From Leucoraja erinacea (taxonomy: Eukaryota), in assembly GCF_028641065.1 (NCBI RefSeq), contig NC_073392.1:24180001-24244000 (forward strand): a stretch of DNA of 64,000 nucleotides. The letters are read 5' to 3'. The notes under the pieces are model-generated. The model was not told where the DNA came from, made no database searches, and saw nothing but the letters and a program-made list of their open reading frames with translations. Each line of letters starts with the position of its first letter. Positions within the stretch are counted from its first letter, which is position 1. The translations under genes were made by a program, and so were the position numbers. This document shows, piece after piece, positions 17,514-53,839 of the stretch.

Positions 17514-17625
17514 CAAATATTATATAACTCTGCTCTATCACCTTTGGGTGCAATGGTGGGTCGGGGGGTTCGGTGGCGGCGGCCGCAATCAAAGATACTA
17601 GTGGAGCTCTGCTCTATAATCTTTG
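17514..17625. mobile_element. Two older TIR-TIR scars (17514-17546, 17590-17625)
   Basis: First is flanked by perfect ggtgcaat repeats; second (caaagatactagtggagctctgctctataatctttg) by gccgcaat/gtcggaat. Confidence 0.65.
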
Positions 17626-18299
17626 GTCGGAATGGGACGGCTGCGCGTTATAATGTGCTATCGTTCCACTCTCCCTCTCCCCCTTCTCCCTCTCCCCCTT
17701 GTCCCTGTCCCCTTCTCCCTCCCCCCTTCTCCCTGTCCCCTCCTTTCCCCTTCTCCCTCCCCCTTCTCCCTCTCCCCCCTTCTCCCTCTCTTCTCTCGAT
17801 CTCTCTCTCCCCTCCTCTCGCTCTCTCGCTCCCCTCTCTTCTCTCGATCTCTCTCTCTCTCTCTCTCTCTCTCCCCCTCTCTTCGCGATCTCCCTCCCTT
17901 CCCTCTCTCCCTCCCTTCCATCTCTCCCTCCCTTACCTCTTCGTGAGAGTTGGCAGCTCTGCTATGCCTTGGGTCCAAAAGAGGATAGATAGAAAATACT
18001 TAATGGTCTTTGTAAGAAGATTTTAATAAGCTCTTCTACATTTAAGGTAAATTGACATATTAGAGCCAAAACGCATTTTCAATATACAGGTCTCTCCACA
18101 CAACTGAAAACAATTGCATTTAAGTGATATATCATCCATTGTTCAGGCAAGTAGCACTAGGTTACAATAAACTTCTTACATATTCCAGGAATTCATCTCA
18201 TAAAAATGGGAGAGGCTTAAATGCATTGTAAAATTATAAATCCATGTTGACTTGGACTAATCCTTTTACTGCTATCCAATGCCCCATTATTACATCTTT

Positions 18300-19629
18300 A
18301 ATAATTGACTCCAGCATCTTTCACACCACCAAAGTCAGGCTAACTGGTCTGTAATTCCCCGTTTTCTCTCTCGCTCCTTTCTTGAAAAGTGGGATAGCAT
18401 TAGCTATCCTCCAATCCACAGGAACTGGTCGTAAATCTATTGATCGTTGGAAAATAATAGAAACATAGAAACATAGAAATTAGGTGCAGGAGTAGGCCAT
18501 TCGGCCCTTCGAGCCTGCAACGCCATTCAATATGATCATGGCTGATCATCCAACTCAGTATCCCGTACCTGCCTTCTCTCCATACCCTCTGATCCCCTTA
18601 GCCACAAGGGCCACATCTAACTCCCTCTTAAATATAGCCAATGAACTGGCCTCGACTACCCTCTGCGGCAGAGAGTTCCAGAGATTCACCACTCTCTATG
18701 TGAAAAAGGTTCTTCTCATCTCGGTTTTAAAGGATTTCCCCTTTATCCTTAAGCTGTGACCCCTTGTCCTGGACTTCCCTAACATCGGGAACAATCTTCC
18801 TGCATCTAGCCTGTCCAACCCCTTAAGAATTTTGTAAGTTTCTATAAGATACCCTCCCAATCTCCTAAATTCTAGAGAGTATAAACCAAATATATCCAGC
18901 CTTTCTTCATATGAAAGTCCTGACATCCCAGGAATCAGTGGTGAACCTTCTCTGCACTCCCTCTATGGCAATAATGTCCTTCCTCAGATTTGGAGACCAA
19001 AACTGTACGCAATACTCCAGGTGTGGTCTCACCAAGACCCTGTACAACTGCAGTAGAACCTCCCTGCTCCTATACTCAAATCCTTTCGCTATGAAAGCTA
19101 ACATACCATTCGCTTTCTTCACTGCCTGCTGCACCTGCATGCCTACTTTCAATGCCTGGTGTACCATGACACCCAGGTCTCGCTGCATCTCCCCTTTTCC
19201 TAGTCGGCCGCCATTTAGATAATAGTCTGCTTTCCTGTTTTTGCCACCAAAATGGATAACCTCACATTTATCCACATTATACTGCATCTGCCAAACATTA
19301 GCCCACTCACCCAGCCTATCCAAGTCACCTTGCAGTCTCCTAGCATCCTCCTCACAGCTAACACTGCCCCCCAGCTTAGTGTCATCCGCAAACTTGGAGA
19401 TATTGCCTTCAATTCCCTCATCCAGATCATTAATATATATTGTAAATAGCTTGGGTCCCAGTACTGAGCCTTGCGGTACCCCACTAGTCACTGCCTGCCT
19501 AATGAAGAACTCAACCATATTATGGTCACTCTTGCCCAAGGGGGCACGTACAACAAGATTGCTAACTAACCCGTCCTCATTACTCAATACCCAGTCTAAA
19601 ATAGCCTGCTCTCTCGTTGGTTCCTCTAC
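18300..19629 (-). mobile_element. CR1 LINE fragments nested in the DNA transposon
   Basis: Near-identical to 13070-14200; internal junction from endonuclease (SDHN) to RT near 19498. Confidence 0.85.
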
Positions 19630-19930
19630 NNNNNNNNNNNNNNNNNNNNNNNNNNNNNNNNNNNNNNNNNNNNNNNNNNNNNNNNNNNNNNNNNNNNNNN
19701 NNNNNNNNNNNNNNNNNNNNNNNNNNNNNNNNNNNNNNNNNNNNNNNNNNNNNNNNNNAAATGTATCCATATGNNNNNNNNNNNNNNNNNNNNNNNNNNN
19801 NNNNNNNNNNNNNNNNNNNNNNNNNNNNNNNNNNNNNNNNNNNNNNNNNNNNNNNNNNNNNNNNNNNNNNNNNNNNNNNNNNNNNNNNNNNNNNNNNNNN
19901 NNNNNNNNNNNNNNNNNNNNNNNNNNNNNN
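19630..19930. other. Assembly gaps (19630-19758 and 19774-19930)
   Basis: N runs around a 15-nt island. Confidence 0.99.
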
Positions 19931-20197
19931 CCTTTATGGTTTATGTATATCATCTTACAAGACAAATAAATTAATAGTGATTATTTAAATCAAAGTTGCT
20001 TCTGATCCATGAGAATAAACTTAACTATCTGTAACTTGCCTCTCACACACAGACACACATTCATATAAATATATATAATATGTATACGTTAAATTTAATT
20101 TTGTGCAGTGTGTGTTAAAGCAATACAATGCAAGGGAAACTACGCAAAGGAGGGGGCTGTTCCCGCTACAAGATACTCGAGGATCTTTGCTTTGGAT

Positions 20198-20228
20198 CAA
20201 AGATTATAGCGGAGCTCTATAATCTTTG
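20198..20228. mobile_element. 31-bp TIR-TIR transposon scar
   Basis: caaagattatagcggag+ctctataatctttg between perfect ctttggat repeats. Confidence 0.8.
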
Positions 20229-20979
20229 CTTTGGATCACAGCGGGTGGCATACCGGAAGTCGCATGTCGCACTAAAAAATGGCGGCCGTGACGTTCCGTC
20301 ACGTACTACACGCCAGCCCATTGAATTTCGAAGGAGTGGTCTATCTTGTTCCTCTAGGATCTTTGCTCGTGAGTAAGATAAGGCAGCGCCTTTATCACCT
20401 CAGGCAATTGAGGAAATTCAGAGTGTCTCCGAGGATCCTCCAGTGCTTCTACTCAGGGGCTGTGGAAAGCATCTTGTCCGGAAATATTACCATCTGGTTT
20501 GGGAACTGCTCTGCCCAGGACAAGAAGGCTCTGCAGAGAGTAGTGCGTTCGGCCGAATGCACTATGGGGACTTCACTCGCCCCCCTGCAGGAACTATACA
20601 TCAGGGGGTGCAGCTACAGAGCCAATAAAATCATGGGAGACCCCTTCCACCCCTGCAACGGACTGTTCCAGCTGATAGGTCAGGCAAACGCCTCCGTTGC
20701 CATGCTGTGAGAACGGAGAGGTTGAGAAGGAGTTTCTTCCCAGAGGCCATTCGGACTGTAAACTCCTATCTCACCAGGGACTAACTTTACTGAACGTTTT
20801 TCCTTCCGCCCACAATATTTAATATGTAAAAGAATATGTGATTCTGTTCCATTCTGTTTGTAGTTTGTTTGGTTGTTTGTTTGTTTGTCTTTTTGCACAA
20901 AGTCCGCGAGCATTGCCAATTTTCATTTCACTGCACATCTCGTATGTGTATGTGGCAAATAAACGTGACGACTTGACTT

Positions 20980-21785
20980 GACTCCAGTCCTTTTGTAATT
21001 TTATATGTTTCTATAAGATATCCCTTCATCCTTCTAAATTCCAGTGAATACAAGCCTAGTCTTTTCAATCTTTCCCCATATGACAGTTCCGCCATCCCAG
21101 GGATCAATCTCGTGAACCTACGCTGCACTGCCTCATCACAAGGATGTCCTTCCTCAAATTAGGAGACCAAAACTGTACACAATACTCCAGATGTGGTCCT
21201 ACCAGAGCCCTATACAACTGCAGAAGAACCTCTCTACCCCTATACTGAAATCGTCTTGCTATGAAGGCCAACATTCCATTAGCTTTCTTCACTGCCTGCT
21301 GTACCTGCACGCCAACTTACAGTGATTGGTGTACAAGGACACCCACGTCTCGCTGTACCTCCCCTTACCTAACCCTAACCCCATTGAGATAATAATCTGC
21401 CCCCTTGTTTTTGCCACCAAAGTGGATAACCTCACATTGATCTAAATTATACTGCATCTGCCACGCATCTGCCCACTCATTCAACCTATCCAGGTCATCC
21501 TGCAACCTCCTAACATCCTCTTCACAGTTCACACTGCCACCCAGCTTTGTGTCATCCGCAAACTTGCTAGTGTTGCTCCTAATTCCCTCTTCCAAATCAT
21601 TAATATATATGGTCAACAGTTGGGGCCCCAACACCGAGCCTTCCGGCACTCCACTCGCCACTGTCTGCCATTCTGAAAAGGACCCGTTCACTCCTACGCT
21701 TTGCTTCCTGTCTGCCAACCAATGTTCTATCCACGTCAACACCCAACCCCCAATACCATGTGCTCTACTTTTAGTCACCAGTCTA
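20980..21785 (-). mobile_element. CR1 LINE RT fragment
   Basis: [32 protein letters not shown]. Confidence 0.8.
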
Positions 21786-21844
21786 TGCTGGCCAAAGAGC
21801 AATATACTCCGGCCATCTTCCTCTAATGCCGCTCCCACTACATC
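21786..21844 (+). pseudogene. Short relic of a hyaluronidase exon-1 3' end
   Basis: tgctggccaaagagcaatatactccggccatcttcctctaatgccgctcccactacatc aligns by eye to LLTKGEYTPPIFLYCRSHFI of copies A/D, with an in-frame TAA. Confidence 0.65.
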
Positions 21845-23261
21845 TCCCGCAACAGGCTCCCCACCCACTCGGGACCGGGCCCCACACCCTGCACCCCACA
21901 CACACAGGGCACTGCATATCCCTGCATATAAAAGCCCCTTAAACACCACTATCTACCCCCATCACGATTCCGGCACCACGTTCACAGACACATGGCACAC
22001 ACACACACACACACACTCATAAACGCCCACACGCACACTCACGAACACACTCACACGCACACACAGAATCAGTCTCGCAGGGTTCAGCTTTGCTACAAGA
22101 TGTTCCTGACCTGGATACCACAATCAGTGAAGATAGGAGACAGCACCCGCTCCACAATAATTCAATGCAGGTACCTCGCTAGAGTTAGTTCTCAGCCCCC
22201 TCCTACTATACTCCCCTGTTCACTCACGACAGTGCGGCCAAATTCAGCTCTAACTCCATCTACAAGTTTGCAGCCGACACCACTGTGGTGGGTAGACACA
22301 AAATGTTGGAGTAACTCAGCGGGTGAGGCAGCATCTATGGAGAGAAGGAATTGGCGACGTTTCGGGTCGAGACCCTTCTTCACCTGATCATGAACAAAGA
22401 TGAGACGGACTTCAAGAAGGAGACGGAGAACTTAGTGACACGGTGTCAGGACATCAACCTCTCCCTTGATGTCAGCGAGAGAAAGGAGCTAGTTATTGAC
22501 CATGGGGAACTTGTCCCCGTCAGCACCAATGGTGACGTAGTGGAGATGGTCGAGAGCTTCCAGTTCCCAGGTGTAAACATCACCAACAATCTGCCCAGGA
22601 CCAATCACATTGAGGCTACGGCCACGAAAGCACATCAACGCCTCTACTGCCTCAGGAGACCAAGGAGGTTCGGCACGTCTCCAACGTCCCTTCCCAAAGT
22701 CAACAGGTGCATCGTATCGGGATGCATCACAGCTCGGTTTGGGAACAGCTCTGCCCAAGACCACAAGAAAGCGCTGAGAGTTATGGATGTAGCCCAGTCC
22801 GTCACACAGACCAGACACCCCACCACCGACTCCATCTACGCTTCACGCTGCCTCGGGAAAGCAGCCAACACCATCAAGATCCATTCACACCCCGGCCATT
22901 CCCTCTTCTCCCATTTGGTAGAAGATGCAGAAGCTTGAAAACACGCACAACCACATTCAGGAGCAGCCTCTTACCCGCTGTTATCACACACTTGAATAGG
23001 GCTCACATAAACTAACAATGTTTTTTGAATCTTCCAATCTTCCTCATTCCGCCTGTTGCACGTTATTCTTTGCACTTTGCACGTGTAACATTATTTTCTG
23101 CACCCTGGTATTTTTTTCATTCGTCTACCTGGTGTCCACGGGTATGTCATGATTGTACTCATGTCTGGTATTATTTGGCAATATCACGTATCAACATTGT
23201 TGGCTGTGGTGGACGTGACATAACTAACAAGGTGGCCAGGGCGCAGCTTGTCCAGTGACCG

Positions 23262-25398
23262 ATGGCCTGGACGTGGTGTGACCGAGGGCGGCTGCCCGCA
23301 CCCTACCCCGTCTATGCCGCCGTCTGTTTGTTGTCGCTCACCTCCGTGGGCCGGGGCCTATCCCGCAAACCGGCCATCCCGCCGCTAGTGAAAGGGCAGC
23401 CCTTCCAGGTCTACTGGAACGTGCCCACGTCGCGCTGCAGCACCCACAGAGGCGTCGACCTGCACTTGGGCGACTTTGGTATTGTAACCAATAGAAATGA
23501 GATGTTTATTGGAGAGAAACTCACGATATTTTATTCTACGCGGTTGGGAATTTATCCAACTTATCATAGTGGGGATCCCGAAAATGGGGGGCTCCCCCAG
23601 AACATGAGCTTGAAGGACCACCTGCGACAGGCCAGGGTAGACATCGACAACGTTTTAGCCACGGACTACCAGGGGTTGGCGGTGATAGACTGGGAGGATT
23701 GGCGCCCCCTGTACGCAAGGAACTGGGGCTCCAAGAGAGTCTACCAGACAAAATCACAGGAGCTTGTCCGGGGGAGGAACCCCGAATGGAACCAAACCCA
23801 TATCGAAGCTGAAGCTAAGAAGGAGTTTGACAAGGCGGCTAAAATGTACATGATGTCTTCCCTGAGGCTGGGCCAGTCGATGCGACCGAAGGCCTACTGG
23901 GGATTTTACCTCTTCCCGGATTGCTACAACTACCACTTCAGGGAAGAGTTCCCCACGTACGACGGCCACTGCCCAGACATCGAGATCAAGCGTAACAATG
24001 AGCTGACGTGGATGTGGACTCAGAGCTCTGCCCTCTTCCCGTCCGTCTACCTAGAGGAGAAGATCAAGTCGGAGCGCGGTCAGCGCGGCAAACTCTACGC
24101 CAGATACCGGATACGGGAAGCCGTGCGTGTGGCTTTGCTGACCAAAGGGAAATATACTCCGCCCATCTTCCTCTACTGCCGCTCCCACTTCATCGACAGC
24201 AAAACCCTCACGCCCCTCAATGAGGTGAGTAGAGGCCGTGCACCTGGTCATCATTCCCTTGCAATTCCATAGCCGCTGGTTCCCCCGCCCGCTCTGACGG
24301 TCACTGAGCGGAAACTTTGACTGTGTCTCCCCCACCCTCCCAACAGTTGCACCACCTACATCCAACCCGGGCATCTCGCTCTCCTTCTCTCTCCCCCTTC
24401 CTCTCTTTCCTTCTCCCCCTCTCCCTCTTCACCCCTCTCCATCCTCCGCTCCCTCCCTCCCTCCCTCTCCCTCTCTCTCTTTCTCTCCAGTCGTCTTGGT
24501 GTGGAGCAGCGCTTGAATCGTCGCGGTGTGGAAAACCGGTGCTGGGACAAGGGATTCATACGGGTCAGCATGGCCATGATAGTCCGAATGGCGTCAGGTC
24601 CCGCTCCGGCCGCTGCTGACCCCACCCCGGGGTAAGCGGGGCCTTTGGGTCGTGGAGATTCGACCCGCAGCCGCCACCTGCTCCAACTTGCGGTTCGTTT
24701 GCAGATTGATCTGGTCCGCACTCTGGGCGAGAGCGCAGCGATGGGGGTGAGTGGAGCCATTCTGTGGGGGTCCATCGACTTCTCCAGAACCACGGTAAGC
24801 GCTCCCTTACTACCCCCCCCCCCCCCTCTCCCACATTGCGACGCTCCCTCAGTACAGCGTAACTCGCCGCCGGGACCAGAGGGGGCTGTGGGCCAGGGCT
24901 CGGGAGGGGTGTGGGGTTGGGGGGGGGGGGGGGGGGGGAGACGGATGCCGAGGTTTCGCGGGTGATGCGGCGGTTAACTCTCCTGGTGCGCTCGGTGTTG
25001 CCAGGAAAACTGCCAGGCCGTGAAGGACCAGGTGCATAATGTGCTGGGGCCGTACATCCTGAACCTGACCGCGAGTGTACGGTTCTGCAGCCGGATGCTG
25101 TGCTCCAACCACGGCCGCTGCTACCGCCGCAACGCCGACGAGGATGTTTTCCTGCACTTGAACAGCAAGTCGTTCCACATCGTGAAGCGCAAACGGCGCA
25201 CGCGACAAAGTTTACATCAAGGGCCGGCCCAGTCTGTCGGACAAGAGGAATTACAAAGCCCACTTCCAGTGTCAGTGTTACCGGGGCTGGAACGGCACCC
25301 GATGCACCCGGTACAAAAAGCCCATCGACTCGTGCCGAGTCGAGACCTCCCCGCTCACACTTGTCCTCGTCCTGCTCCTGAGCCTTCTCCTCATATGA
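23262..25398 (+). CDS. Hyaluronidase paralog D (catalytic type); exons 23262-24224, 24705-24794, 25005-25398, with apparent +1 frameshift near 25202
   Basis: DWEDW motif intact, highly similar to A/B; last exon is 394 nt (cgcacgcgacaaa vs cgcaccgacaac in B), so either a pseudogene allele or an assembly indel. Confidence 0.8.
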
Positions 25399-27070
25399 TG
25401 GATGTAGTTCCTGTCCAAAATAAAAACAATATCCTGAAACTCTCCCTGTTCAATTCACTTCTGTGTGTTTGGTCTTGTGACACAGAGGCTCACTCATAAC
25501 ACAGATCTGGCCCATCGGCCCACCGTCTCCACCTACCACACTTGTCAACACCAATCCCACCCACCCGCACTGTGACTCCTCTGCCTTCACCACTCAAGAA
25601 CGCGCAGAGGCTCCTGAAATGTAGGTGTTGCGGGGCAAGTGGATTAGTGTGGGATTGATACAGATTCGTCCGGGTCCAAGTTCTGGCCAGATTGTTGCAT
25701 CCTCCCCCTCACCCCGGCTCCGCAGCGCCCGGCCTCCGCCGCCTCTCCGGATGAAGCGAGAGACGGGCGCGGGTCGCGGGTGAGCGGAGCCGGGTGCCGG
25801 GAGTTGGCGGCTCGGCGGAGACAGGCCGCCACCGCCGCAGCCCAGGGTGAGTGCAGGGAAATCGAGGTCGGGGCTGCGGCCTAGTGTCCGGCCGAATTCC
25901 ACAAATTCATAGCGTCAGAAGGCAGTGGAGGCCGATTCATTGGATAGGAGGCAGCACCCGCTCCACAATAATTCAATGCAGGTACCTCGCTAGAGTTAGT
26001 TCTCAGCCCCCCCTACTATATTCCCTGTTCACTCACGACAGTGCGGCCAAATTCAGCTCTAACTCCATCTACAAGTTTGCAGCCGACACCACTGTGGTGG
26101 GTAGACACAAAATGCTGGAGTAACTCAGCGGGTGAGGCAGCATCTATGGAGAGAAGGAATTGGCGACGTTTCGGGTCGAGACCCTTCTTCACCTGATCAT
26201 GAACAAAGATGAGACGGAGTTCAAGAAGGAAACGTAGAACTTAGTGACACGGTATCAGGACATCAACCTCCCCCACGATGTCAGCGAGAGAAAGGAGCTA
26301 GTTATTGACCATGGGGAACTTGTCCCCGTCAGCACCAATGGTGACGTAGTGGAGATGGTCGAGAGCTTCAAGTTCCCATGTGTAAACATCACCAACAATC
26401 TGCCCAGGGACAACCACATTGAGGCTACGGCCACGAAAGCACATCAACGCCTCTACTTCCTCGGGAGACCAAGGAGGTTCGGCACGTCTCCAACGTCCCT
26501 TCCCAACGTCAACAGGTGCATCGTATCGGGATGCATCACAGCTCGGTTTGGGAGCAGCTCTGCCCAAGACCACAAGAAATCACAGCGAATTGTGGATGTA
26601 GCCCAGTCCGTCACACAGACCCGACTCCCCACCAGCGACTCCATCTACGCTTCACGCTGCCTCGGGAAAGCAGCCAACATCATCAAGGACCACTCACACC
26701 CCGGTCATTCCCTCTTCTCCCATTTGGTAGAAGATGCAGAAGCTTGAAAACACGCACAACCACATTCAGGAGCAGCCTCTTACCCGCTGTTATCACACAC
26801 TTGAATAGGGCTCACATAAACTACCAATGTTTTTTGAATCTTCCAATCTTCCTCATTCCGACTGTTGCACTTTATTCTCTGCACTTTGCACCTGTAACAT
26901 TATTTTCTGCACCCTGGTATTTTTCTCTTTGCGCTACCTGGTGTCCACGGGTATGTCATGATTGTACTCAGGTCTGGTATTATTTGACCATATCACGTAT
27001 CAACATTGTTGGCTGTGGTGGACGTGACATAACTAACAAGGTGGCCAGGGCGCAGCTTGTCCAGTGACCG

Positions 27071-28512: not shown

Positions 28513-28547
<35 letters not shown>

Positions 28548-29358
28548 GGTAAGCGGAGCCGATGGGGCGGGGAGATCCGACCCGCAGCCGCCACCTGCTC
28601 CAACTTGCAGTTCGTTTGCAGATTGATCTGGTCCGCACTCTGGGCGAGAGCGCAGCGATGGGGGCGAGCGGAGCCATTCTGTGGGGGGTCCATCGACTTC
28701 TCCCAAAACAAGGTAAGCGCTCCCTCACTGCCCCTCCCACAGTGCGGCGCTCCCTCACTGCCCCTCCCTCAGTGCGGCGCTCCCTCAGTACATCGTAACT
28801 CGACGTCGGGAGGGGGGGGGGGGGGGGGGGGGGCTGTGGGCCTGGGCTCGGGGGGGGTGTGGGGGGGGGGGGGGGGGGGGGGGGGAGGGGGGGGGGAGTG
28901 GGATGCCGAGGTTTCGCGGATGGTGCGGCGGATAACTGTCCTGCTGCGCTCGTTGTTGGCAGGCAAGCTGCCAGGCCGTGCACAAACAAGTGCAGAATGT
29001 GTTGGGGCCGTACATCCTGAACCTGACGGCGGCCGTGCGGAGCTGCAGCTTAACACTGTGCGCCAACCACGGCCGCTGCTTTCGCCGCAACGCCGAGGAG
29101 GATGTGTTCCTGCACTTGAACAGCAAGTCGTTCCGCATCCTGAAGCGCAGCAAGGCGGGCGGCGGCAAGGTTTACATCAAGGGCCGGGCGAGTCTGTTGG
29201 ACAAGAGGGATTACAAATCCCACTTCCAGTGTCAGTGTTACCGGGGCTGGAACGGCGTCCGATGCAGCCGCTACAGAAAGCCCTCCGCGTCCTGTCGAGC
29301 CGAGACCTCCCCGCTCACACTTGTCCTCGTCCTGCTCCTGAGCCTTCTCCTCATATGA
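27071..29358 (+). CDS. Hyaluronidase-like paralog E, predicted non-catalytic; exons 27071-28024, 28622-28712, 28963-29358
   Basis: EWVDW instead of DWEDW (27497-27505), WGFA, RNT; middle exon is 91 nt because of one extra G in a G-run at 28683-28688 (possible homopolymer error). Confidence 0.8.
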
Positions 29359-29950: not shown

Positions 29951-32439
29951 AGTGCTGTGGATAGAGACGACACGAATTGAGGGTCTCTCAAGGTGCTGCT
30001 GTGCCGTACGTTCCGATAATATTGGCACAAAGCGCCCAGTGAAGAGCCGGGATGACCGAGGTGATGAGGGGGTTTCAGGGTGCTGCAAGACGTGGGAGGG
30101 TGGGACTTCCTGACACTGGGGATGTTTGGGTGGGTTGAGATGGACCCGCTGTGCGGCTGCCGCGTGGACCAGCAGCAGCTCTGCAGGTCTTGGCCGGACA
30201 CCGTCATCAACGATGCCGACACTTCACCCAAACTACTCAGCGTCTACAGGTGTACGGTAGGGAGCACACTGACTGGTTGCATCACAGCCTGGCTCAGTAA
30301 CTTGAACGCCCAGGAATGAAGGATACTACAGAGAGTGGTGGACGCTGCCCGGTCCATCACTGGTACTGACTTCCCCACCATCGAAGGGATCTACGGGAGG
30401 CGCTACCCCCTCTACAGGAACTGTACATTGGAAGTTGCAACTCTAGAGCCAATAAAATCATGGGAGACCCTGTTCCAGCCCTGCAACGGACTGTTCCAGC
30501 TGCCACGGTCAGGCAAACGCCTCCGTGCCCATGCTGTGACAACGATAAGGTTGAGAAGGAGTTTCTTCCCAGAAGCCATTAGGACTGTAAACTCCTACCT
30601 CACCAGGGACTAACTTTACTGTACCACTCTACTGCTTTTTTCTTAATTGCTGTTTTTTTTCCTTTTTCCTTCCTCCCACAATATGTAATATGTAAAAGAA
30701 TATGTGATTCTGTTCCATTCTGGTTGTTGTTTGTTTGTTTTTTTGCACAATACGTGAGCATTGCCACTTTTCATTTCCCTGCACATCTCGTATGTGTATG
30801 TGGCGAATAAACGTGACTTGCCTCAAAAAGGCAGCCAGCATCATCACAGACCCACACCACGCTGTCCACACTCAACTAATCGGATAGAAGGTACAGGAGC
30901 CTGAAAACCGTGACCTCCAGGTTCATGAACAGCTTCTTCCTAGCAACCACCAGGCACTTTGAAACAGAAACATAGAAAATAGGTGCAGGAGTAGGCCATT
31001 CGGCCCTTCGAGCCTGCACCGCCATTCAATATGATCATGGCTGATCATCCAACTCAGTACCGTGTACCTGCCTTCTCTCCATACCCCCTGATCCCTTTAG
31101 CCACAAGGGCCACATCTAACTCCCTCTTAAATATAGCAAATGAACTGGCCTCAACTACCTTCTGTGGCAGAGAATTCCACAGATTCACCATTCTCTGTGT
31201 AAAAAAAGATTTTCTCATGTCGGTCCTAAAAGACTTCCCCCTTATCCTTAAACATCACACGCCGCAGCACTCGTGAGTAAGACAAGGCAGCGCCTTTACC
31301 ACCTCAGGCAATTGAGGAAATTCAGAGTGTCTCCGAGGATCCTCCAGTGCTTCTACTCAGGGGCTGTGGAAAGCATCTTGACTTGACTTGTTCTGGACTT
31401 CCCCAACATCGGGAATAATCTTCCTGCATCTAGCCTGTCCAACCCCTTAAGAATTTTGTACGTTTCTATAAGATCCCCCCTCAATCTTCTGAATTCTAGC
31501 GAGTACAAGCCGAGTCTATCCAGTCTTTCTTCATATGAAAGTCCTGCCATCCCAGGAATCAGTCTGGTGAACCTTCTCTGTACTCCCTCTATGGCAAGAA
31601 TGTCTTTCCTCAGATTAGGAGACCAAAACTGTACGCAATACTCCAGGTGTGGTCTCACCAAGACCCTGTACGACTGGTTGCACCACGCATTATTTATTAA
31701 TTTCTGGCATTACTGATTATTATATTTGTATCGGTGTGTTGTGTTCACTCGCTTGTTAAGTCAGGGAAGCAAGATTGGCATTGTTCCGTTGGCGGTGCAG
31801 ACGAGATTTCAACGGTCCCGACTGCAACGCCGCCTCTCCGGAGCTTGCGCTGACCAGCAGCCGTTCGTCACCATCAGCTGCTGCCGGCCCACGCTTCCTC
31901 TTCGCCGGGGTGGGGACACTGGCCTTTCCTTCCTGTCCTTTGTGCTCAGGCTGAGGCAGGCGAGCGCGATCGAGTCGTCAAATTTAAAAATTCCTCCGGG
32001 TCCAAGTTCTGGCCAAACAGTTGCATCTTGGGGTGGAGCTGGTGCAGAGAGAGGTAGTGAGAGAGAGACGGTGGAGATAGATAGTGAGAGACAGATAGAT
32101 AGATAGATAGTGAGGGAGAGATAGACAGAGGACTAGAGACAATGCTACAACCCACCCCAAATATCCCTGTGGTCACAGTGAAGTGCGGATACTCACCCAC
32201 CCCGAATATCCCTCATCCCTCGCCATTCCCTACCCTCTTCTCCTAAACACCCCCCCCACCCTCCACCCGCTATCCCCTAAACACCCCCCCCCCCACCCCC
32301 CCACCCGCTATCCCCTAAACACCCCCCCTCCCCCCACCCCCCCTCCCCCCACCCTCCACCCGCTATCCCCTCCCCCTCACTCCTCAACCCCCCGTCCTCG
32401 AGTCAGTACAGTGAGGGAGCGCCGCACAGTGGGGGGGGG

Positions 32440-33154: not shown

Positions 33155-33194
<40 letters not shown>

Positions 33195-36272: not shown

Positions 36273-36312
<40 letters not shown>

Positions 36313-38315: not shown

Positions 38316-38334
38316 CAAAGATCTTAGATCTTTG
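38316..38334. mobile_element. 19-bp TIR-TIR transposon scar
   Basis: caaagatcttagatctttg between perfect gttttgac repeats. Confidence 0.75.
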
Positions 38335-39689: not shown

Positions 39690-39995
39690 CAAACACTGCT
39701 TGTGAGCCATTTAAAAAGAAATGATTTAAAAAACATTAAAAAAGACAATTACCAGAGTCAAATTTTATTCTTGACAAGAAGTATGAACTGACAGAATTAT
39801 GAATCTAACCCTATATCACACACACAAACTGTTGCCCCGCAACATTGATTACATTGCTGTCGGGTCGGGTCAGGTAGGCTCCGGTTACTAAAATGGGCGG
39901 GGGAAAAATGCCCAGGATTCCCTCCGTAGCGTACTACACGTCGGCGCATTGTATTCCGCAGGAGTAGCCCATCTTGCTCTGCTCTAAGATCTTTG
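39690..39995. mobile_element. Internally deleted member of the same CAAAGAT family
   Basis: TSD gccaggcc at 39682-39689 and 39996-40003; right end ggagtagcccatcttgctctgctctaagatctttg and subterminal gtactacacg resemble 20300-20365. Confidence 0.65.
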
Positions 39996-40410
39996 GCCAG
40001 GCCGGGGGCGGCGCTGCAGCGGGCGGGTGGAGCCGCCAGGCCGGGGGCGGCGCTGCAGCGGGCGGGTGGAGCCGCCAGGCCGGGGGCGGCGCTGCAGCGG
40101 GCGGGTGGAGCCGCCAGGCCGGGGGCGGCGCTGTAGCGGGCGGGTGGGCCGGAGGCCGGGGGCCAGGCGCGGGCGGGTGGAGCCGCCAGGCCGGGGGCGG
40201 CGCTGCAGCGGGCGGGTGGAGCCGCCAGGCCGGGGGCGGCGCTGCAGCGGGCGGGTGGAGCCGCCAGGCCGGGGGCGGCGCTGTAGCGGGCGGGTGGAGC
40301 CGCCAGGCCGGGGGCGGCGCTGCAGCGGGCGGGTGGAGCCGCCAGGCCGGGGGCGGCGCTAGCGGGCGGGTGGAGCCGCCAGGCCGGGGGCGGCGCTGTA
40401 GCGGTGGAGC
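39996..40410 (+). repeat. 39-bp GC-rich minisatellite just upstream of UQCRC1
   Basis: About 10 copies of gccaggccgggggcggcgctgcagcgggcgggtggagcc; further degenerate copies at 39510-39689. Confidence 0.9.
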
Positions 40411-40432
40411 CAGACCGGGCGGGTGAGGGAAG

Positions 40433-43400: not shown

Positions 43401-46400
43401 TGTGTTGGAGTAACCTCCGGCCATTTTGTAGCTGGTGCACACTGCAGCCACCGTGTGCTGGTGAATGTTGTTCCTGCTTTGCCCCAGATAAAGCGTTGCA
43501 TCTCTGTGACATTGTTGCAGCTGGACTCACCCTGGCAAGGGGAGAGTGTCCCTCACAGTCCTGACCTGAGCTACAGGTGGTGGAATGGCATCAGTGAATC
43601 AAGGATGTGTCAAGTATGTGAAAGCCGTGATACTCCAACACTAAGTGTGAACTGTTTGAGTGGGCGTTGCTGAACACAGAGGGTTGGTGTCAGGATGGAC
43701 AATGGAGACAGCAGAAACCATGCCAGGGATAGTGTTAGAACAAAGCCTGGGGCTCCTGAGTAACCGTCTGGAAACGCTGTCTGTTGTTGGTGTTCTCAGG
43801 GAACCAAGCGCCACCCGCACCTGGCCCTGGAGCGGGAGATTGCAAGCCGGGGGGCACACCTCAACGCCTACACCTCCCGTGAGCAGACTGCCTACTACAT
43901 GAAGACCCTGGCCAAGGACATGCCTACAGGTGCGGACACCCCCCTGCCTCAGTTAACATGTTTGCACGTTTAAACATGTCTGTATTTGGGTTTATGCCGT
44001 GCATGTATAGCAGTGTGAACAGTTTCTGTAAGATCTCACTGAAGCCACGCTGTGTCACTGCACACCATGTCCGTCGGTCCTACGCTCCCTTCACTCGTAT
44101 TTGCAACCGGGTTCTGCCTGGGACGTCTGGAAATGTTTGAACAATCACAAAATGATGAGAAGACAGAGAGTGCTGGAGCAATTTAGCAGGCCTGGCAGCA
44201 TTTCTGGATAACATGGATAGGTAACATTTCGGGTCGGGACCCTTCTTCAGACCTGAAGTGTCACCTATCCATGTTGTCCAAAGATGCTGTCTGATATGTT
44301 GAGTTACTCCAGCACTCCCTTCATTTGTAAACCCACATCTTCAGTTCCTTGTGCTGGTCTCCTGAGCAGTCCAATCCCATTGGTTGGGCTTGTCCTCATG
44401 GTTCAGCAGATGGGCCAAGGTTACTGATTACTGCAGTGAATGAGGGGCAGGGGCAGAATCAGTGCCAGGAGGCTGGCTGGCTGACCTGACCACACGGCTT
44501 GTTACATCCTTTGGTAAGTTAGCTCATCTGTTCGTCCTGGCATCGGTTAAACTAGTTGGACAGCTGATCTAACCAGTCAAACTACTAATCTTTGCCTGTA
44601 ATAATGCTTGCTAATTTCTAGGTACTGTCTCTGTTAAACTGGTAGCAACCTGATATTGCAGATGTTAAATTGACTATAGTCATTGTTGATCTTGTTACAG
44701 CCTGGTTACCATTGGTGTTACCTGGCTGCATGCTGTAGATTACTGCTGATCGCTGCTGGTCACTGTGCTGTAGGTCACTACTGGTCACTGCTGGTTACTT
44801 CTGGTAACCATCGTTGCTGATTACTGTCACTGGGTTATTGCTGGTTACTTGTTTACTGCGGGTTACTGGTGGTTGCAGGAGTAGTGACTGCTGCCTTGCC
44901 TGTCCTTCCCACAGCTGTGGAGCTCCTCAGTGAGCTGGTGCAGAACAGCTCGTTCTCGGAGGCTGACGTGGAGTCCGGCCGGCAGCTGGTGCTGCAAGAG
45001 ATGCAGGAGATGGAGAGCAGCCTGGAGGACGTGTCGTTCGATTACCTCCACGCCACCGCCTTCCAGGGAACCCCCCTCAGCTACACCGTGGTGGGACCCT
45101 CCAAGAACATCAAGTAAGCATCTGACCTTGTGTGACCTCTAGTCCCAGAGGGTCACAGCCACGTGCAGTAATTTCACAAAGCGGCAGTCGATTTGCCAAC
45201 GGCAGGGAGACTGGACGACTTGTGGCAAATGGATCTAGAGTAGATGGGCATTAGGGTCAGCATGGAGCAGGTGGGCTGAAGGGCCTGTTTCTGTGCTGTA
45301 GGATTCGGTGACTGAACAAACTGTGAATGGTGATGGTGACTGTATGTGAAAGAACCATTTGGGTGTAAAATAAATTATTATTCCATTTACTCTAGCTTCA
45401 GCCCATAAGAAGTGCGTATGGGCATTTATCAATGTCTTGTCTTCACTGTGCAGGATGTTGACTGCGTTAAAAGCTTGCCTTAAACATACCACTAACACAA
45501 GCATCCTTCTCCCCTGTCCAGGGATCTGAAGCGCAGCGATCTCCTGGAGTTTATGACTGGTCACTTCAAGGGTCCCCGAATCGTGCTGGCAGCCTCAGGA
45601 GGTGAGGATGTCATTCTGGTCCCAGGCATGGGGCTCGGGCGGTTCTGTGCACATCTGGATAAGGTGCTGAGGTTGAGGAGAGATTGCGGAGACTCAGCAG
45701 TGATGCAGGGATCAGCAGCTTCTGTTGTATGGGGCTGGAGCAGAGAGGGTTGGGGGAGGTGGGATTGTAGGGGTTGTTATCTGTGAGGGGTTCCGGTGAC
45801 TTGAGATCCTGATTCCAGTGGGTGAGGGTCAGCGATAGGGAACACATCTTGTATAATGTTGGTCAAAGGAACCCGACTCGCTGTCTTGTTCCAGCACCAA
45901 AAGTGATCCTGGACCTAGGAAAGGTCTATCAAACTGGCCCCAATCCACAGCTCTGCAAACCGCTTCCTGTCGAGTTCCCAGCTGCCGTTGCCACAGGCTC
46001 CTGGAGCCCACTCCAGGCCCCACCACTAAAAGTAAAACTGTTCCTGCCACTGCGAGCTCCTGTTCAAACTGGAATTGAATTGATTTGAAAGATACTGCAT
46101 GGAAACGGGCCCTTTGGCCCGCCGAGTCCACGCCAACCATCCATCACCCATTCACTCCAGTTCTAGTCTGAAGAAGGGTTTTGGCCTGAAACGTTGCCTA
46201 TTTCCTTCGCTCCATAGATGCTGCTGCATCCGCCGAGTTTCTCCAGCATTTTTGTGTACACTCTAGGTCTATGTTATCCCACTTTCTCATCCACTCCCTA
46301 CACACTAGGGGCTATTTATAGAGAGCTAATTAACCTACAAACCCGCACGTCTTTGGGATGGGGCAGTGGAGGGGGGGGATGTGGAGGGGGGTGATGTGGG

Positions 46401-49400
46401 TGGGGCAGTGGAGGGGGGTGATGTGGGTGGAGCAGTGGAGGGGGGTGATGTGGGTGGGGCAGTGGAGGGGGGTGATGTGGGTGGAGCAGTGGAGGGGGGT
46501 GATGTGGAGGGGGGGAGTGATGGCCGTACCTCGCGTGGAGTCAATAACGGTGACGCTTCCTCTCGACAGGCGTCCGGCACGAAGATGTGGTGGCTCTGGC
46601 TCGCCAGCATTTGTCAGGGATTCCCAGCACCTACGAGGACGATGCGATCCCTGTCCTGTCCCCCTGCCGCTTCACAGGCAGCCAGGTGAGTAACGGCCAC
46701 CAGCCGGCACCCAAACTAGCTGTCCTGTAGCTTGTGGTCAGATCTCCATCCCTGCTCCTCCACTGAATCGGTCAGCCATGATCAGCCCAGGAATTCCTGC
46801 ACGAACAAACACCAGATGCTGCGGGGAGCCCTGAAAGTTGTCTATAAAATTATGAGAGGGTAGGCTGTCAGAACCTTTCTCCCAAGATGGAAAAATGAAG
46901 GGTCTCAACCCGAAACGTCATCCATTCCTTCTCTCCAGAGATGCTGCCTGTCCCGCTGATGTTACTCCAGCTTTTTGTGTCTATCTTTGGAAAAATCAAA
47001 AATATTCAATTTCTCCCGTCACCTGACCTCTGGGAAAGACTTCATTCTCAATCCTCTGGGACAGGCTCCTGTTCCGACTGGCGAGTGGGTGAGGTTTCAG
47101 AGGTCACAGACAGAGTGGAAAGGGAAAGTAGGTACTGACAAGGAACTCCCCGGGAAGGACTAGGATGGGAATGATGGCTTGAATGGCCTGCTGTGCTGTA
47201 TGTTCCTACGATATTGGCACAAAGGGCAGCACTGATGAGCCAGGATGACTGAGGTGGGAGAGTGGGCATGTGGGGTAGGACCTCCTGACACTGGGGATGT
47301 TTGGGTGGGTTGAGATGGACCCGCTGTGCGGCTGCCGCGTGGACCAGCAGCAGCTCTGCAGGTCAACGATGCCGACACTTCACCTAAACTACCCAGCGTC
47401 TACAGGTGTACTACTGGGAGCACACTGACTGGTTGCATCATGGCCTGGGTCAGCAACTCGATTGTCCAGGAACGAAGGAGACTACAGAGAGTGGTGGACA
47501 CTGCCCGATCGATCACAGGTACTGACCTCCCCACCATCGAAGGGATCTACAGCACTGCCTTAAAAAGGGAGCCAGCATAATCATAGACCCACACCACTTG
47601 GGCCACACTCTCATCTCGCTGGTACCATCACGATGAAGGTACAGGAGCCTGAAAACCATGACCTCCAGGTTCAAGAGCAGCTTGTTCCCAGCAACCATCA
47701 GACTCTTGAACGCTGCACAACACTAACCTCAGCAACTGTGATCTTGTATGGACTGTGTCTTTGGTTGCACTACGGACTTTTCCACTATTATGGTTACCTA
47801 GTATTACGGCTATTAATTTATTGTATTATTGATTTTTATGTATTTATCTGTGTGTTATTTTGTTTGTTGGTCTGTTAAGCTGCAGTGAGTAATCTCATTG
47901 TTCAGTTGTTGTTACAGATGACAATGAAACACTGCTGCCTCTGCTTTGGTGTTTCAGATGCTGGTGCGGGACGATGCCATGCCGTTCGCACACATTGCGA
48001 TTGCGGTAGAGGGGGTGGGAGCCAACAACCCTGACATGATCCCACTCTCCATCGCCACCTCGCTGATTGGAAGCTGGGACCGCACGTACGGGGGTGGTGC
48101 GGTGAGTCTCTATCCTTCCCCCCTCGCCATTCTCTCTCTTCCTCTCCACCTCTATCCCCACTCACCTTCCCTCTATCTCCATCTCTATCNNNNNNNNNNN
48201 NNNNNNNNNNNNNNNNNNNNNNNNNNNNNNNNNNNNNNNNNNNNNNNNNNNNNNNNNNNNNNNNNNNNNNNNNNNNNNNNNNNNNNNNNNNNNNNNNNNN
48301 NNNNNNNNNNNNNNNNNNNNNNNNNNNNNNNNNNNNNNNNNNNNNNNNNNNNNNNGTCTCTCCCCATAGATGCTGTCTGACCTGCTGAGTGTTTCCCACA
48401 TTCTCTGTTTTTAATCACAGATTTCCAGATCTGGGATGTTTGCCTTTGGGTTGGTATCCTAATGTGACAGTGTTGTGTGTTGATTAATAATGGCAGATTC
48501 TTGGAACATGTTGTTGCTTATGGTATTAAAGACTTCATAAAGGTTATGCTGGAATTGGGGACAGTTTGCACATATGGATTTTCACAACTAGGTCATGATG
48601 GATGCATTTAATTTGTTTAATGTGGGAAGTCGGGGTTAGGCTAATAATGAGTGTCATCCCTATTTGTCCTTGAGAAGGGCAGATAAGACACCTTGAACCA
48701 CTGCAGTCCTTCTGGTGAAGTCCCAGGATTTAGGATTAGTGATAGATTTATAAATCAGTGTGGGGTGATCTGTGGGTGGTGGCCTTGATGGTAGAAGTTG
48801 TGAGTTTGCCAAGTACTTTCAGATTAATTGCTGCCCCTGCCCTGGGAGTGTGTGATGGGACAGTGCGGATGGAGCTTCATTGTGTGTCTGACCCTGGGAG
48901 TGTATGATGGGACGGTGTAGTGGAGGTTATTGACACATTTCTCCCTGCTGCGCAGAATCACTCGAGTCGATTGGCCCGTATTGCGGTTGAGAATAAGCTG
49001 GGTCACAGTTTCCGCTCGTTCAATACCTGCTACTCAGACACGGGTCTGTGGGGAATCCATCTGGTGTGTGATGGAATGAACATTGAGGACATGCTGCACT
49101 TTGCCCAGGATGAGTGGTGAGTGCCTGCTGAATCATAGCTCCCGAGATCGGTGAGCGATAGATGATGGGAGAACTGGAGTTGGGGTCTTCAGGTGGGCTT
49201 TGAATCCTCGGGAGGGGCGTTGGGGGGGGGGGGGGGTGGGAAGAAGGGATGGGGGAGCGGGGGCAGTGGTGGGGTGGGCAATATTGGAGTGTCCGTGGCA
49301 CAGCATGGGGGGAGAGTGGGCTTCAAGGGCCGTGCAGCCGCTCCTGCCTCGGTCCCTGGCCTGCTGGGGTCCCTGTCTTGCTGGAGCTCAATGCCTAATA

Positions 49401-50843
49401 CAGTTCCAGACTTGTTAAAGTTCCAAGCCTGCGGGGGCTGCCGGCCTGCTTGGGTTGCCAGTCTGTTGGAGACCCCGGCCTGCTGGGATTAGCGACTTGC
49501 TGGGTTGCCAGTCTGCTGGCGTTAGCGCCTGCCTTTTCTGTCTGCACAGGATGCGTCTCTGCACGAGTGTGACCGACAGCGAGGTGAACAGGGCCAAGAA
49601 CCTCCTCAAGACCCATCTGGTGGCTCAGCTGGACGGTGAGGAGAGGGAGTGTAGAAAGAACGCCGAGATTCCCCCCCAGTCCGCCTTTTTCTCCCACCTA
49701 CCAGCCTGGGATGCGCTCCGTCCGTCCGCATTTGCTCCGTCTCCCAACTGCCTTCCTCACCGCTCAAGGCCATCCTGTTCCCGCAGGGTGAAAGCACCAT
49801 TTCCACCATCCCACACTGCTCCCACTGTCCCCACCATCGAACGACTGCCCCTGTCCCTGATGCCCCTTGACACAATGGGCCTGTTGTTGCTTCCTCTGTA
49901 CACAGCTGCCCCTGTCACTGTGCTCCCCCTGTACAGCTGCCCTGTCCCTGCGCTCCCTCTACACAACTATACACAGCTGTCCCGTCCCTGTGCTCCCTCT
50001 GTATACAATTGTACACAGCTGCCTTTCTCCGCAGGGACCACACCAACGTGTGCGGAGATCGGGCAACAAGTGCTCAGTCACGGCCGACATGTCTCGCTGG
50101 CAGAGTGGAACTCCAGGATCGATGTAAGTATTTGTCATTTTTCAAATCCCAGAGCATCGTTTCCCTGGTGCTAAAACTTGCCCGAGGGTCCTGTCCACCA
50201 ATGGGGGACAGTTTGTGAGCCCGTGGACGGTGTCTGTATGTCCTGCTCCTCTCTGCCCGTTTCTCCTCTCACCCCCAGATTCTGCCTCCTATCCCAGTTT
50301 CTCCTCCTCAACCTCGGTTTCTCTCCCCCTCATGCCCAGTCTCTCTCACCCTCACCCCTGGTCTCTCGCTGCTGGTCTCTCACCCCCAGTTCTCTCCCCC
50401 CGCTGCAGGCTGTTGATGCGCAGGTCCTGCGGGAGGTGTGCACCCGCTACATCTACGACCAGTGTCCCGCTATCGGCGCCGTTGGTGAGTTCATGTTCCC
50501 ATCACTAATTCTCCCTGACCCTGCGCCCATCACTGACTGCTGGGCGTGGGGTCAGTGCATTGTCACCGTGATCAGGCGTGGGGTCAGTGTGGGCTCACCA
50601 TGGCTGAGCATGGGATCAGTGTGAGATTAATGTCCAGGTGTGGGGTCAGTTGCGGGATGTGTGGTCGGTGCCTGGTTGTGGGGAATAAAATGGCTGATGG
50701 TTGGCACGGATTAGATGGGCCAAACGGTGTCTCCCCATGCTGTATCACTGACATGCATCGATTGACTCTTCCCAACAGGCCCGATCGAACAACTGCCGGA
50801 CTACAACAGGATCAGAAGCGCCATGTACTGGCTGCGTCTGTGA
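40433..50843 (+). CDS. UQCRC1: Cytochrome b-c1 complex subunit 1 (core 1); exons 40433-40480, 41307-41447, 41610-41696, 43800-43929, 44915-45113, 45522-45601, 46570-46685, 47958-48101, 48956-49116, 49550-49635, 50035-50123, 50409-50484, 50779-50843 (473 aa)
   Basis: All 12 introns GT-AG and phase-compatible (1422 nt total); M16-peptidase motifs [20 protein letters not shown] (non-catalytic variant of HXXEH), [48 protein letters not shown]; YY1-like aagatggcggc at the ATG. Confidence 0.93.
42850..43211 (+). mobile_element. LINE 3' fragment (CR1/L2 group)
   Basis: [10 protein letters not shown]...RSRRGH...FFPRTI..WN.L-like C-terminus; accaagaa tandem tail. Confidence 0.55.
46360..46518 (+). 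repeat. 27-bp G-rich minisatellite in UQCRC1 intron 6
   Basis: gcagtggaggggggtgatgtgggtgg(g/a) repeated. Confidence 0.8.
48190..48355. other. Assembly gap in UQCRC1 intron 8
   Basis: N run next to a CT-rich repeat. Confidence 0.99.
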
Positions 50844-51537
50844 GCAGGGCGGGGGCGAAGACCCCCTCTCAGTCTGTCTCATTGTAACTGAACGGCGTGG
50901 AGCCCAGCTGTACAGAATGAATAATTAAAAGATAAATTAAACCAGACCACTGTCTGCGATAGTTTCTGCAGGGTGCGGAAAGCGTTGCTTCTCAGACGAC
51001 CAATGTACCTCTGAGTGAAGTCTCTGCGAAGGTCCCGCACGCTCCGTGTTTACCGACATGGAGCATCTTCGAGACCCACGGGCATGGGAATCCCAGCAGA
51101 CCAGGGACTTACTCGGTTACGACGACCAGAATGCAGCAGCATTTACTACGGAACAGAAACCGTGCCGTGTCTATCAGCAGGAGTCTGTGAACTCAAAGCG
51201 TCTGTGTTAGTGATCAATAGGCTCCCCTTCTCCCTGTGTGGGTAACGCCTCATCGCTCACAAGTTCTGATCTGGTCCGTGCAATTGAGGTTGATGCGGTG
51301 CAAGGTGTGCTTCCCGCTGGATGCACTGGGCAAATGTGATGTGGATCCTGCCTCTCCCACCCTTTCAGACTGAGCCCAGATGCTCCTGGGGTGAGGAAGG
51401 TTCTCCTCACTGGTCCTCCAATATTTCTACTGAAGAGGATTCATTAGGAGAGAATGAGCTAATCACGGACTGTTAGCATAGCTTTCTCTGTGGATGAAGT
51501 TCTATTGCCAGTGGAGGTTTGCCGGAATCTGTGCTGA

Positions 51538-52015
51538 GACATAGAAACATAGAAAATAGATGCAGGAGTAGGCCATTTGGCCCTTCGAGCCAGCACCGCC
51601 ATTCAAAATGATCATCCAAAATCAGTGCCGCTTTCCTGCTTTCTCCCCATATCCCTTGATTCCGTTAGGCCTAAGAGCTAAATCTAACTCTGTACAACAG
51701 CAGAAGGACCTCTTTACTCCTATACTCAACTATTCTTGTTATGAAGGCCAACATGCCACTCGCTTTCTTCACTGCCTGTTGTACCTGCATGCTTACTTTC
51801 AGTGACTGATGAACAAGGACCCCCAGATCCCATTGTACTTCCCCTTTTCCCAACTTGACACCAATAAGATAATAATCTGCCTTCCTGTTTTTGCCACCAA
51901 AGTGGATAACATCACATGTATCCACATTAAACTGCATCTGCCCACTCACCCAACCTGTCTAAGTCACCCTGCATCCTCATAGCATCCTCTTCACAGTTAC
52001 CCAGCTTTGTGTCAT
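51538..52015 (-). mobile_element. CR1 fragments
   Basis: catagaaa tail and MQFNVD.C.VIHFG motif. Confidence 0.7.
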
Positions 52016-52779
52016 TTAGGGTTGTCTATCAAGGGTTGAATGGAAATGCAGATGAGTTGGTTAGAATGTATTCAGATGACAAAAATAGCTGTGTGAACAG
52101 CTGTCACAATATACATAAAGATATTGATTGGATATGGATATGGGTGGAGATGTAGTTTATCCATGCAAGTGTGAGGTGTTGCACTTTGGGAGGTCAAATT
52201 TAAGGCCGAAGTGTAGATTTAATGGCAGCACACTTAACAGCATTGATGTGTACAGAGTGATCTTGGAGGTCCAAGTCCATAGCTCCAAGAAAATAGCAAC
52301 ACAAATAAGCTGTAACAAAGGCATATGGTACGCTTGCCTTCATTGGTTGGGGCATTGAGTATAAGAGTCAGGAAGTCAAGATGCAGCTCATAGGACTTTC
52401 TTTAGGCTGCATTGTGTGCAGATCTTGTCCCCCCATTAGGGGAAGGATGTGAGGGCTTTGGAGAGGTTACAAAAGAGGTTTACCAGAATGATGCCTGAAT
52501 TAAGGGGTATTAGCCATAAGGAGAGGTTGGCCAAATTTGGATTATTTCCTCTGGAGCATTGGAGGCTGAGGGGAGACCAGATATAAATTATTGTAATTGT
52601 GGTAGATATAATCTGCTCCAGGGACGAAACGTCAAACACTAGCTTTAAGGTGAGAGAAGCAAGTTTTTTTAAACAGGGTGGTAGAGTCCTGTAAGACGCT
52701 GCCAGGGGTGCTGTCAGAGACTGATACGATAGTGGTGTGTGTACAAGATCCTTTGGATAGGCGCATGGATATACAGCGA

Positions 52780-53375
52780 ATGTACAGAGTTGCAGTTGTA
52801 TGGGGCCCTAGTGAGACCACACTTGGAGTATTGTGTGCAGTTTTGGTCACCTAATTTGAGGAAGAACATTCTTGCTATTGAGGGAGTGCAGCGTAGGTTT
52901 ACAAGGTTAACTCCCAGGATGGCAGGACTGTCATATGCTGAGAGAATGGAGCGGCTGGGCTTATACACTCTGGAGTTTAGAAGGATGAGAGGGGACCTTA
53001 TTGAAACGTATAAGATTGTTAAGGGTTTGAACACGCTGGAGGCAGAAATCATGTTCCTGATGTTGGGAGAGTCCAGAACCAGAGGCCACAGTCTAAGAAT
53101 AAGGGGTAAGCCATTTAGAACGGAGACGAGGAAACACTTTTTCTCACAGAGAGTTGTGAGTCTGTGGAATTCTCTGCCTCAGAGGACGGTGGAGGCCGGT
53201 TCTCTGGATACTCTCAAGAGAGAGCTAGATATGGCTCTTAAAGGTAGCGGAGTCAGGGGATATGGGGAGAAGGCAGGAACGGGGTACTGATTGGGGATGA
53301 TCAGCCATGATCACATTGAATGGTGGTACTGGCTCGAAGGGCCGAATGGCCTACTCCTGCACCTATTGTCTATTG
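52780..53375 (+). mobile_element. CR1 LINE 3' fragment
   Basis: [15 protein letters not shown]...[12 protein letters not shown]...TRGHSL..WNSLP. Confidence 0.8.
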
Positions 53376-53734
53376 AATGGGGGGCGGATATCTAGCAACG
53401 GACATTGTGGGCCGAAGGTAGGCAAAAATGCTGGAGAAACTCAGTGGGTGAGGCAGCATCTATGGAGCGAAGGAAATTGGCAACGTTTCGGGTCGAGACC
53501 CTTCTTCAGACCGAAGGGTCTGTTCCCGTGCTGTATTGTTTTGTGTTCACCCTCATTGATGTTCCCCGGGTTCCCCTTCATGATGCGGGCCGAGGCTCTG
53601 CTCCCCGTACACTGGCAGCGACCTGCACAGCCTGCAGCAACTTTATTGAAGGAATGACAACAACGCGATGACTTTGTCTTCCTCAGTCAGACCCGAGCAG
53701 CGGCGGGTATGGGGCGCGAACTCACCGTCGCCCC

Positions 53735-53765
53735 CAAAGATCCTAGAGGAACTCTAGGATCTTTG
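53735..53765. mobile_element. 31-bp TIR-TIR transposon scar
   Basis: caaagatcctagaggaa+ctctaggatctttg between perfect gtcgcccc repeats. Confidence 0.8.
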
Positions 53766-53839
53766 GTCGCCCCGCTCATGAGCCGGCCGTGCATCACATG
53801 ACCCCACAGAGGCCCCGCTCATCAGGCCGCCCACGAGGG

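Follow-up and report, generated by a model that had tools for sequence, protein, structure and literature searches.

Five TIR-to-TIR scars in the skate Leucoraja erinacea as probable excision footprints of a P-superfamily family

Excision of the Drosophila P element produces 3' overhangs of 17 nt (PMC7776569), and the junctions formed by end joining hold both copies of the target-site duplication (TSD), no more than 17 nt of each terminal inverted repeat (TIR), and either a microhomology of 1-3 nt or a short insert (PMC2895639). This 17-nt stagger is a signature of the P transposase and, in the literature covered, has been documented only for the Drosophila enzyme. Among vertebrate P-like proteins, zebrafish zfTHAP9 has shown excision but no integration in assays (PMC10983969), and the available passages of a paper on human THAP9 give neither a stagger nor a footprint (PMC8230255). 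In hAT elements, cleavage generates hairpins on the flanking DNA (PMC5499845), for which reason TIR stubs are not expected after their excision. Here, a window of 64,000 nucleotides from the skate Leucoraja erinacea (the whole stretch of DNA analysed; contig NC_073392.1, positions 24,180,001 to 24,244,000 of the forward strand) is described, in which five short inserts consist of two TIR stubs fused head to head between TSD copies. With a probability of roughly 0.85, these scars are the donor-site end-joining products of a P-superfamily family with at least two TIR subtypes.

The five inserts and their junctions

Two larger members of the family provide the intact ends with which the inserts can be compared. 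E1 (16896..20365, + strand) is a non-autonomous P-type element with 34-bp TIRs, identical at 33 of 34 positions, and an 8-bp TSD. E2 (39690..39995, + strand) is a 306-bp deleted copy, also with an 8-bp TSD, which conserves an intact 3' end and only CAAA of the other, and whose 3' TIR carries a 2-nt insertion with respect to the TIR of E1. Three of the inserts lie within E1: 17514..17546 (33 bp, TSD ggtgcaat, 8/8), with a diverged TIR sequence; 17590..17625 (36 bp, longer than twice 17 nt), whose TSD matches at 6/8 positions; and 20198..20228 (31 bp, ctttggat, 8/8), near the 3' end of the element. The other two are 38316..38334 (19 bp, gttttgac, 8/8), which has E2-type TIR sequence and occupies a CpG-rich site, and 53735..53765 (31 bp, gtcgcccc, 8/8), in a CpG-rich region about 230 bp upstream of the likely start codon of a DUF498 gene (53992). 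Coordinates, lengths and TSDs are all as given in a preliminary description of this DNA. The head-to-head pattern CAAA(G)AT...CTTTG reported there needs a small correction for 17514, which starts with CAAATAT and ends with CCTTTG.

The five inserts are real and lie beyond chance expectation. Inserts of 10-60 bp with the form CAAA...TTTG and an exact 8-bp TSD occur four times in the window and in none of 200 dinucleotide shuffles; when up to two TSD mismatches are allowed, five are observed against a shuffle mean of 0.26 (maximum 3). A scan free of any motif, which accepted every exact 8-bp direct repeat flanking a 10-60 bp insert with a terminal inverted repeat of at least 4 bp, returned 20 matches: four of the scars, 15 derived from a single 39-bp tandem repeat near 40000, and a single 10-bp insert at 22410 that is unrelated. 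When the TIR start was turned into a profile, 14 positions exceeded 14 bits, namely the ten scar arms, the two termini of E1, a single terminus of E2 and an additional arm at 20189. The remaining 14 listed positions scored at most 11 bits; built from 12 of its own scored ends, this profile is a census and not a test. As only the five scars, E1, E2 and the arm at 20189 emerge from it, the window holds no copy sized between 36 and 306 bp. The extra arm (20169..20189, - strand; 14 nt, 13/14 matching E1) abuts the left TSD of scar 20198 and has no matching left TSD; it is possibly a sixth scar, deleted on one side, derived from a double insertion at one target, an event documented for P elements (PMC5932611). 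Occurrences of CAAAGAT at 10811, 17478, 22395, 26204, 37370 and 44279, which have neither a partner end nor a TSD, were treated as unrelated. Judging from the positions of the TSD 8-mers in the window, no second copy of the flanks, and hence no paralogous empty site, was recognised for the five scars or E2.

The length of each arm was taken as the longest match to any of the three intact ends (E1 5', E1 3' and E2 3'). By this measure, 53735 is composed of 18 nt of the E1 3' end and 14 nt of the E1 5' end, overlapping by 1 nt; it had been described as a fusion of the TIR ends of E1, and indeed matches them at 31/31 positions, with a split of 17+14 or 18+13 and the long arm coming from the 3' end. 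The arms of 20198 measure 18 and 15 nt and those of 17590 18 and 20 nt, both pairs overlapping by 2 nt (GC); 17514 has arms of about 14 and 19 nt without overlap (15+18 scores equally), and 38316 has arms of 13 and 9 nt with a microhomology of 3 nt. Four of the five junctions thus permit a microhomology of 1-3 nt, and ten out of ten arms stay within 20 nt although the TIR spans 34 bp. Under a crude model of uniform junctions, this bound has a p value of 0.002, or 0.007 if 17514 and 17590 are counted once. The long arms end at an inner CAAGAT, which starts at position 18 in the E1-type TIR and, shifted by the 2-nt insertion, at position 20 in the 3' TIR of E2, so that they reach 17-18 nt for E1-type ends and 19-20 nt for E2-type ends. 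The arms of the scars include neither the inner half of the TIR nor a subterminal motif common to the three intact ends.

These lengths do not fully agree with the strict ceiling of 17 nt that had been proposed, given that the arms of the 36-bp scar 17590 match the TIRs for 18 and 20 nt and one arm of 17514 for 19 nt; the ceiling appears to be 17-20 nt. To reach its length, 17590 needs either an arm no shorter than 18 nt or 2 nt of filler, and a 17-nt limit by itself cannot account for it. A composition of 17+2+17 with filler is possible, because short inserts are common in Drosophila P junctions. The two extra bases, in 17590 as well as in 17514, are the exact continuation of the E2-type TIR. 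Within the window, all five units differ in sequence, 17514 and 17590 being about 75% alike.

Element E1 and the parent family

E1 contains a first exon encoding part of a THAP domain, the three scars mentioned above, a fragment of a long interspersed nuclear element (LINE) and a gap of N. Its subterminal motif, predicted from the sequence, is found near both ends of the element, though not at equal offsets. The insertion site of E1 has an empty paralogous counterpart at 31270..31277 (+ strand), in a duplicated block which aligns to the left flank of E1 with 325 matches, 12 mismatches and 2 gaps (about 4% divergence). This site holds a single copy of the 8-mer and no scar, while E1 is flanked by two copies, from which it follows that the TSD of E1 is 8 bp long. 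The comparison suggests that E1 was inserted after the duplication of the block, providing a relative date for the insertion.

The preliminary description had counted five footprints in 64 kb, omitting that 17514, 17590 and 20198 are nested in E1. The count of five scars stands, while that of five local events is not fully supported, since three are nested and one of them has a decayed TSD. The three internal scars may be cargo. In the case of 17590, the 6/8 TSD, found inside an element whose own TSD is perfect and whose flanks differ by about 4% from the paralogue, indicates that this scar probably predates the arrival of E1 and came with it. Only 38316 and 53735 are clearly local excision events.

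The assignment to the P superfamily, a mere guess in the preliminary description, can now be based on the THAP exon of E1 and on a chain of homology leading to an intact P catalytic core. The exon (17024..17116, + strand) is the broken exon 1 of a P-type transposase, followed by a GT donor and out of frame with the upstream ATG. Its 31-aa translation gave a weak lead in the Atlas (0.80), and a protein search against 1.84 billion representatives recovered six proteins, all of them with a Pfam THAP domain. The closest named relatives are skate proteins, the best match being the start of the Pfam THAP domain of P0001 (XP_055522325, from Leucoraja erinacea), with 90% identity. P0001 is a chimeric gene model in which THAP is joined to TRIM-like domains. 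Across residues 217-252 it shares 86% identity with the beginning of P0015, a protein which is also 74% identical to the Amblyraja protein P0010 across 102 residues. P0015 holds the P-element helix-turn-helix (HTH) domain, the N and C parts of RNase H and the GTP-binding insertion. Its sole match in the PDB is the Drosophila P transposase (6P5A, E 3e-43), with which it shares the three catalytic acids (D230, D303 and E531) and seven of the eight GTP-site residues listed in PMC7776569, K400 being replaced by R. The combination of HTH, split RNase H, GTP-binding and DDE is therefore present, by this chain, in relatives of the family, and absent from E1 and E2 themselves. PF12017 appears in 4 of 11 THAP relatives, above the cut-off in two. 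These homologies place the parent family of the scars in the P superfamily. An origin from hAT elements was rejected: the scars retain TIR stubs and intact TSDs, and a Pfam scan of 15 relatives revealed no hAT domain.

P0015 has 377 relatives, of which 120 were listed; most are unnamed proteins, and none of the 120 carries the name THAP9. The label "THAP9-type" given to the footprints in the preliminary description is therefore not fully supported. In the Leucoraja gene models P0001, P0009 and P0014, THAP exons of the E1 family are joined to TRIM-like or coiled-coil host exons, fusions that represent either annotation chimeras or exon capture. The relatives of the THAP exon (P0003-P0006 and P0010-P0013) come from pipefish, moray eel, hagfish, sea urchin and octopus, as well as from skates; P0003-P0006 are 66-73% identical to the exon across about 30 aa, and this patchy marine range may result from horizontal transfer. 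Downstream of the exon, the interior of E1 from 17130 to 17500 has no match to exon 2 of the relatives, and the open reading frame (ORF) at 17283-17513 has no Pfam match (scanned as part of 17283-17663) and no meaningful match in the Atlas (recognition 1112).

Excision, other origins and the position of the nick

The architecture of the scars is the same as that of sequenced Drosophila P junctions, which upholds the earlier proposal that they are excision footprints. According to this model, the transposase would insert elements, creating the 8-bp TSD. Upon excision, one strand would be cut at the end of the element and its partner some 17-20 nt further in, within the TIR, and this stagger would leave both ends of the broken chromosome with long 3' overhangs made of TIR sequence. 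These overhangs would then be joined by the host by means of 0-3 nt of microhomology, keeping both TSD copies and fusing two TIR stubs which, devoid of the inner TIR half and of the subterminal motifs, would no longer be mobile. The scars inside E1 would derive from insertion into a member of the family followed by excision, at least one of them having probably arrived with E1. E2 could be a related one-sided product, with a stub on one side and, on the opposite side, about 300 bp restored by copying, which is what an aborted gap repair should produce; its TSD is weaker evidence because it falls in a tandem repeat.

Other origins can be conceived for inserts of this kind. If the TIRs of an element fold into a stem during replication, slippage at a microhomology may drop the loop and leave the base of the stem in place, without any participation of a transposase. 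This "nearly precise" deletion is known for the bacterial transposon Tn10, and both the absence of a transposase core from the window and the microhomology of 1-3 nt allowed by four of the five junctions would agree with it. However, the microhomologies available are very short, none of the ten arms extends past 20 nt in spite of a 34-bp stem, and four of the five scars have an arm at the boundary of the inner motif (rough p of 0.003 for arms of 5-39 nt and 0.05 for arms of 5-20 nt), all of which makes such deletions a very unlikely source. Abortive gap repair after a flush-cutting excision, in which a few TIR bases are copied from the sister chromatid before the ends are joined, is likewise a very unlikely one: its products are the common outcome in Drosophila (PMC2895639) and E2, which keeps 4 nt on one side and about 300 bp on the opposite side, resembles them, but copying should not halt within 20 nt on both sides in five of five cases, and in a P-type family the overhangs exist before any copying (PMC7776569).

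It could also be argued that the units are miniature inverted-repeat transposable elements (MITEs) reduced to the TIR tips and independently mobile, as each of them has TIRs and an 8-bp TSD and two share a 17+14 layout. This origin is very unlikely in view of the differences in sequence among all five units and of the loss of both the inner TIR half, which is contacted by the P HTH domain, and the subterminal motif of the three intact ends, P transposase being known to bind internal sites (PMC7776569).

Several observations weigh against P-type excision. The scars are few, only five, and for none of them is an orthologous site, empty or full, available; two arms are counted as exceeding 17 nt, and the scars 17514 and 17590 could be old duplicates. 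The THAP exon alone, a short and decayed piece, has no match in Pfam or the PDB, and tblastn with 10 relatives found no catalytic or later exon in the window, where THAP exon 1 alone was matched. The link between E1 and P0015 runs through overlaps of 30 and 36 aa by way of a chimeric model, P0015 being a relative and not a proven partner. Moreover, excision by zebrafish THAP9 in cells gave larger flanking deletions (PMC10983969). Finally, the fit of seven target sites to the palindromic P target motif (taken from PMC2577343), with 29 of 56 positions matched where 14.1 would be expected, a value reached in 1 of 20000 local draws, speaks for P-type excision, but the same sites match the hobo motif at 25 of 56 positions (p 0.0004); since both motifs fit, the target motif was dropped as a means to tell P from hAT.

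Within the excision model, the place of the inner nick deserves separate consideration. The structure of the Drosophila P transpososome contains a fold-back helix, and in it the inner half of the TIR is contacted by the HTH domain (PMC7776569). In the skate family, the terminal AAGAT (positions 3-7) is repeated at position 19 or 21 in the three intact ends, a repetition by which, once the nick is made, the 5' end newly formed on the non-transferred strand could pair with the 3' end of its transferred counterpart, in a manner comparable to that helix. The nick may be placed by the internal CAAGAT instead of being measured from the end of the element, with overhangs of 17-18 or 19-20 nt according to the type of end, an idea to which we give slightly less than even odds. 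A nick set from inside the TIR implies that one element may have different staggers at its two ends. The proposal is kept tentative because the evidence for 19-20 nt comes from two scars, 17590 and 17514, which are perhaps not independent, and because a symmetric stagger of 18 nt likewise fits all five scars. If it is true, the scars constitute a genome-wide fossil record of nick position by subfamily, for a vertebrate P family that has both inserted and excised.

Genomic setting and comparison with known systems

The window encodes a tandem hyaluronidase cluster, one M16-peptidase gene, presumably UQCRC1-like, and the DUF498 gene, which we take to be NDUFAF3-like. E2 is located about 440 bp upstream of the likely start codon of the M16-peptidase gene, inside a 39-bp GC-rich tandem repeat. 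With regard to the ratio of observed to expected CpG, the insertions 38316, E2 and 53735 fall in percentiles 0.99, 0.92 and 0.94, whereas the site of E1 itself falls in 0.29. Three of the four insertions outside the interior of E1 are thus in CpG-rich sequence, the exception being E1's own site; this distribution is only suggestive of a preference for promoters. Scars that persist in such upstream regions lengthen the sequence beside genes by 27-44 bp, counting the second TSD copy along with the scar. The hyaluronidase cluster (4932-37029) includes several near-identical copies and one divergent gene, and the copy at about 8450-10000 shows an apparent internal deletion. An uninterrupted LINE reverse-transcriptase ORF of 741 codons lies at 57940-60165 (- strand).

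Both the type of footprint and the superfamily were already known, and the value of these scars resides in providing a natural, countable record of nicks for a vertebrate P family. A literature search of titles and beginnings of abstracts turned up neither a skate P family nor natural P footprints in vertebrates. The scars suggest that a vertebrate has likewise used the long staggered cut of the fly P elements, at slightly different lengths, and they offer an in vivo read-out of which thousands could be counted in existing skate genomes. Such counts would distinguish a fixed stagger from one set by the TIR, and would draw attention to a P transposase of vertebrates able to integrate.

The skate family resembles the Drosophila P element in its 8-bp TSD, in TIRs of about 30 bp with a 3'-terminal G, in a similar target motif, in the THAP, HTH, RNase H and GTP-binding domains (found in relatives of the family), in two-stub footprints with short microhomology, and in having three of four outside insertions in CpG-rich regions. 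It differs in the sequence of its TIRs and in arms that reach 18-20 nt instead of 17; furthermore, the skate scars are natural, fixed and from a vertebrate, while those of Drosophila are laboratory products. With hAT elements (Hermes, hobo and Ac) the family has in common the 8-bp TSD and an overlapping target preference. As in the zebrafish Pdre2/zfTHAP9 system, it is vertebrate and P-like, with 8-bp TSDs and internally deleted copies, but Pdre2 has distant sub-TIRs, and its TIRs differ in sequence and measure 13 bp, in contrast to the 34-bp TIRs of the skate family (PMC10983969). Unlike zfTHAP9 in its assays, the skate family presents genomic evidence for both insertion and excision.

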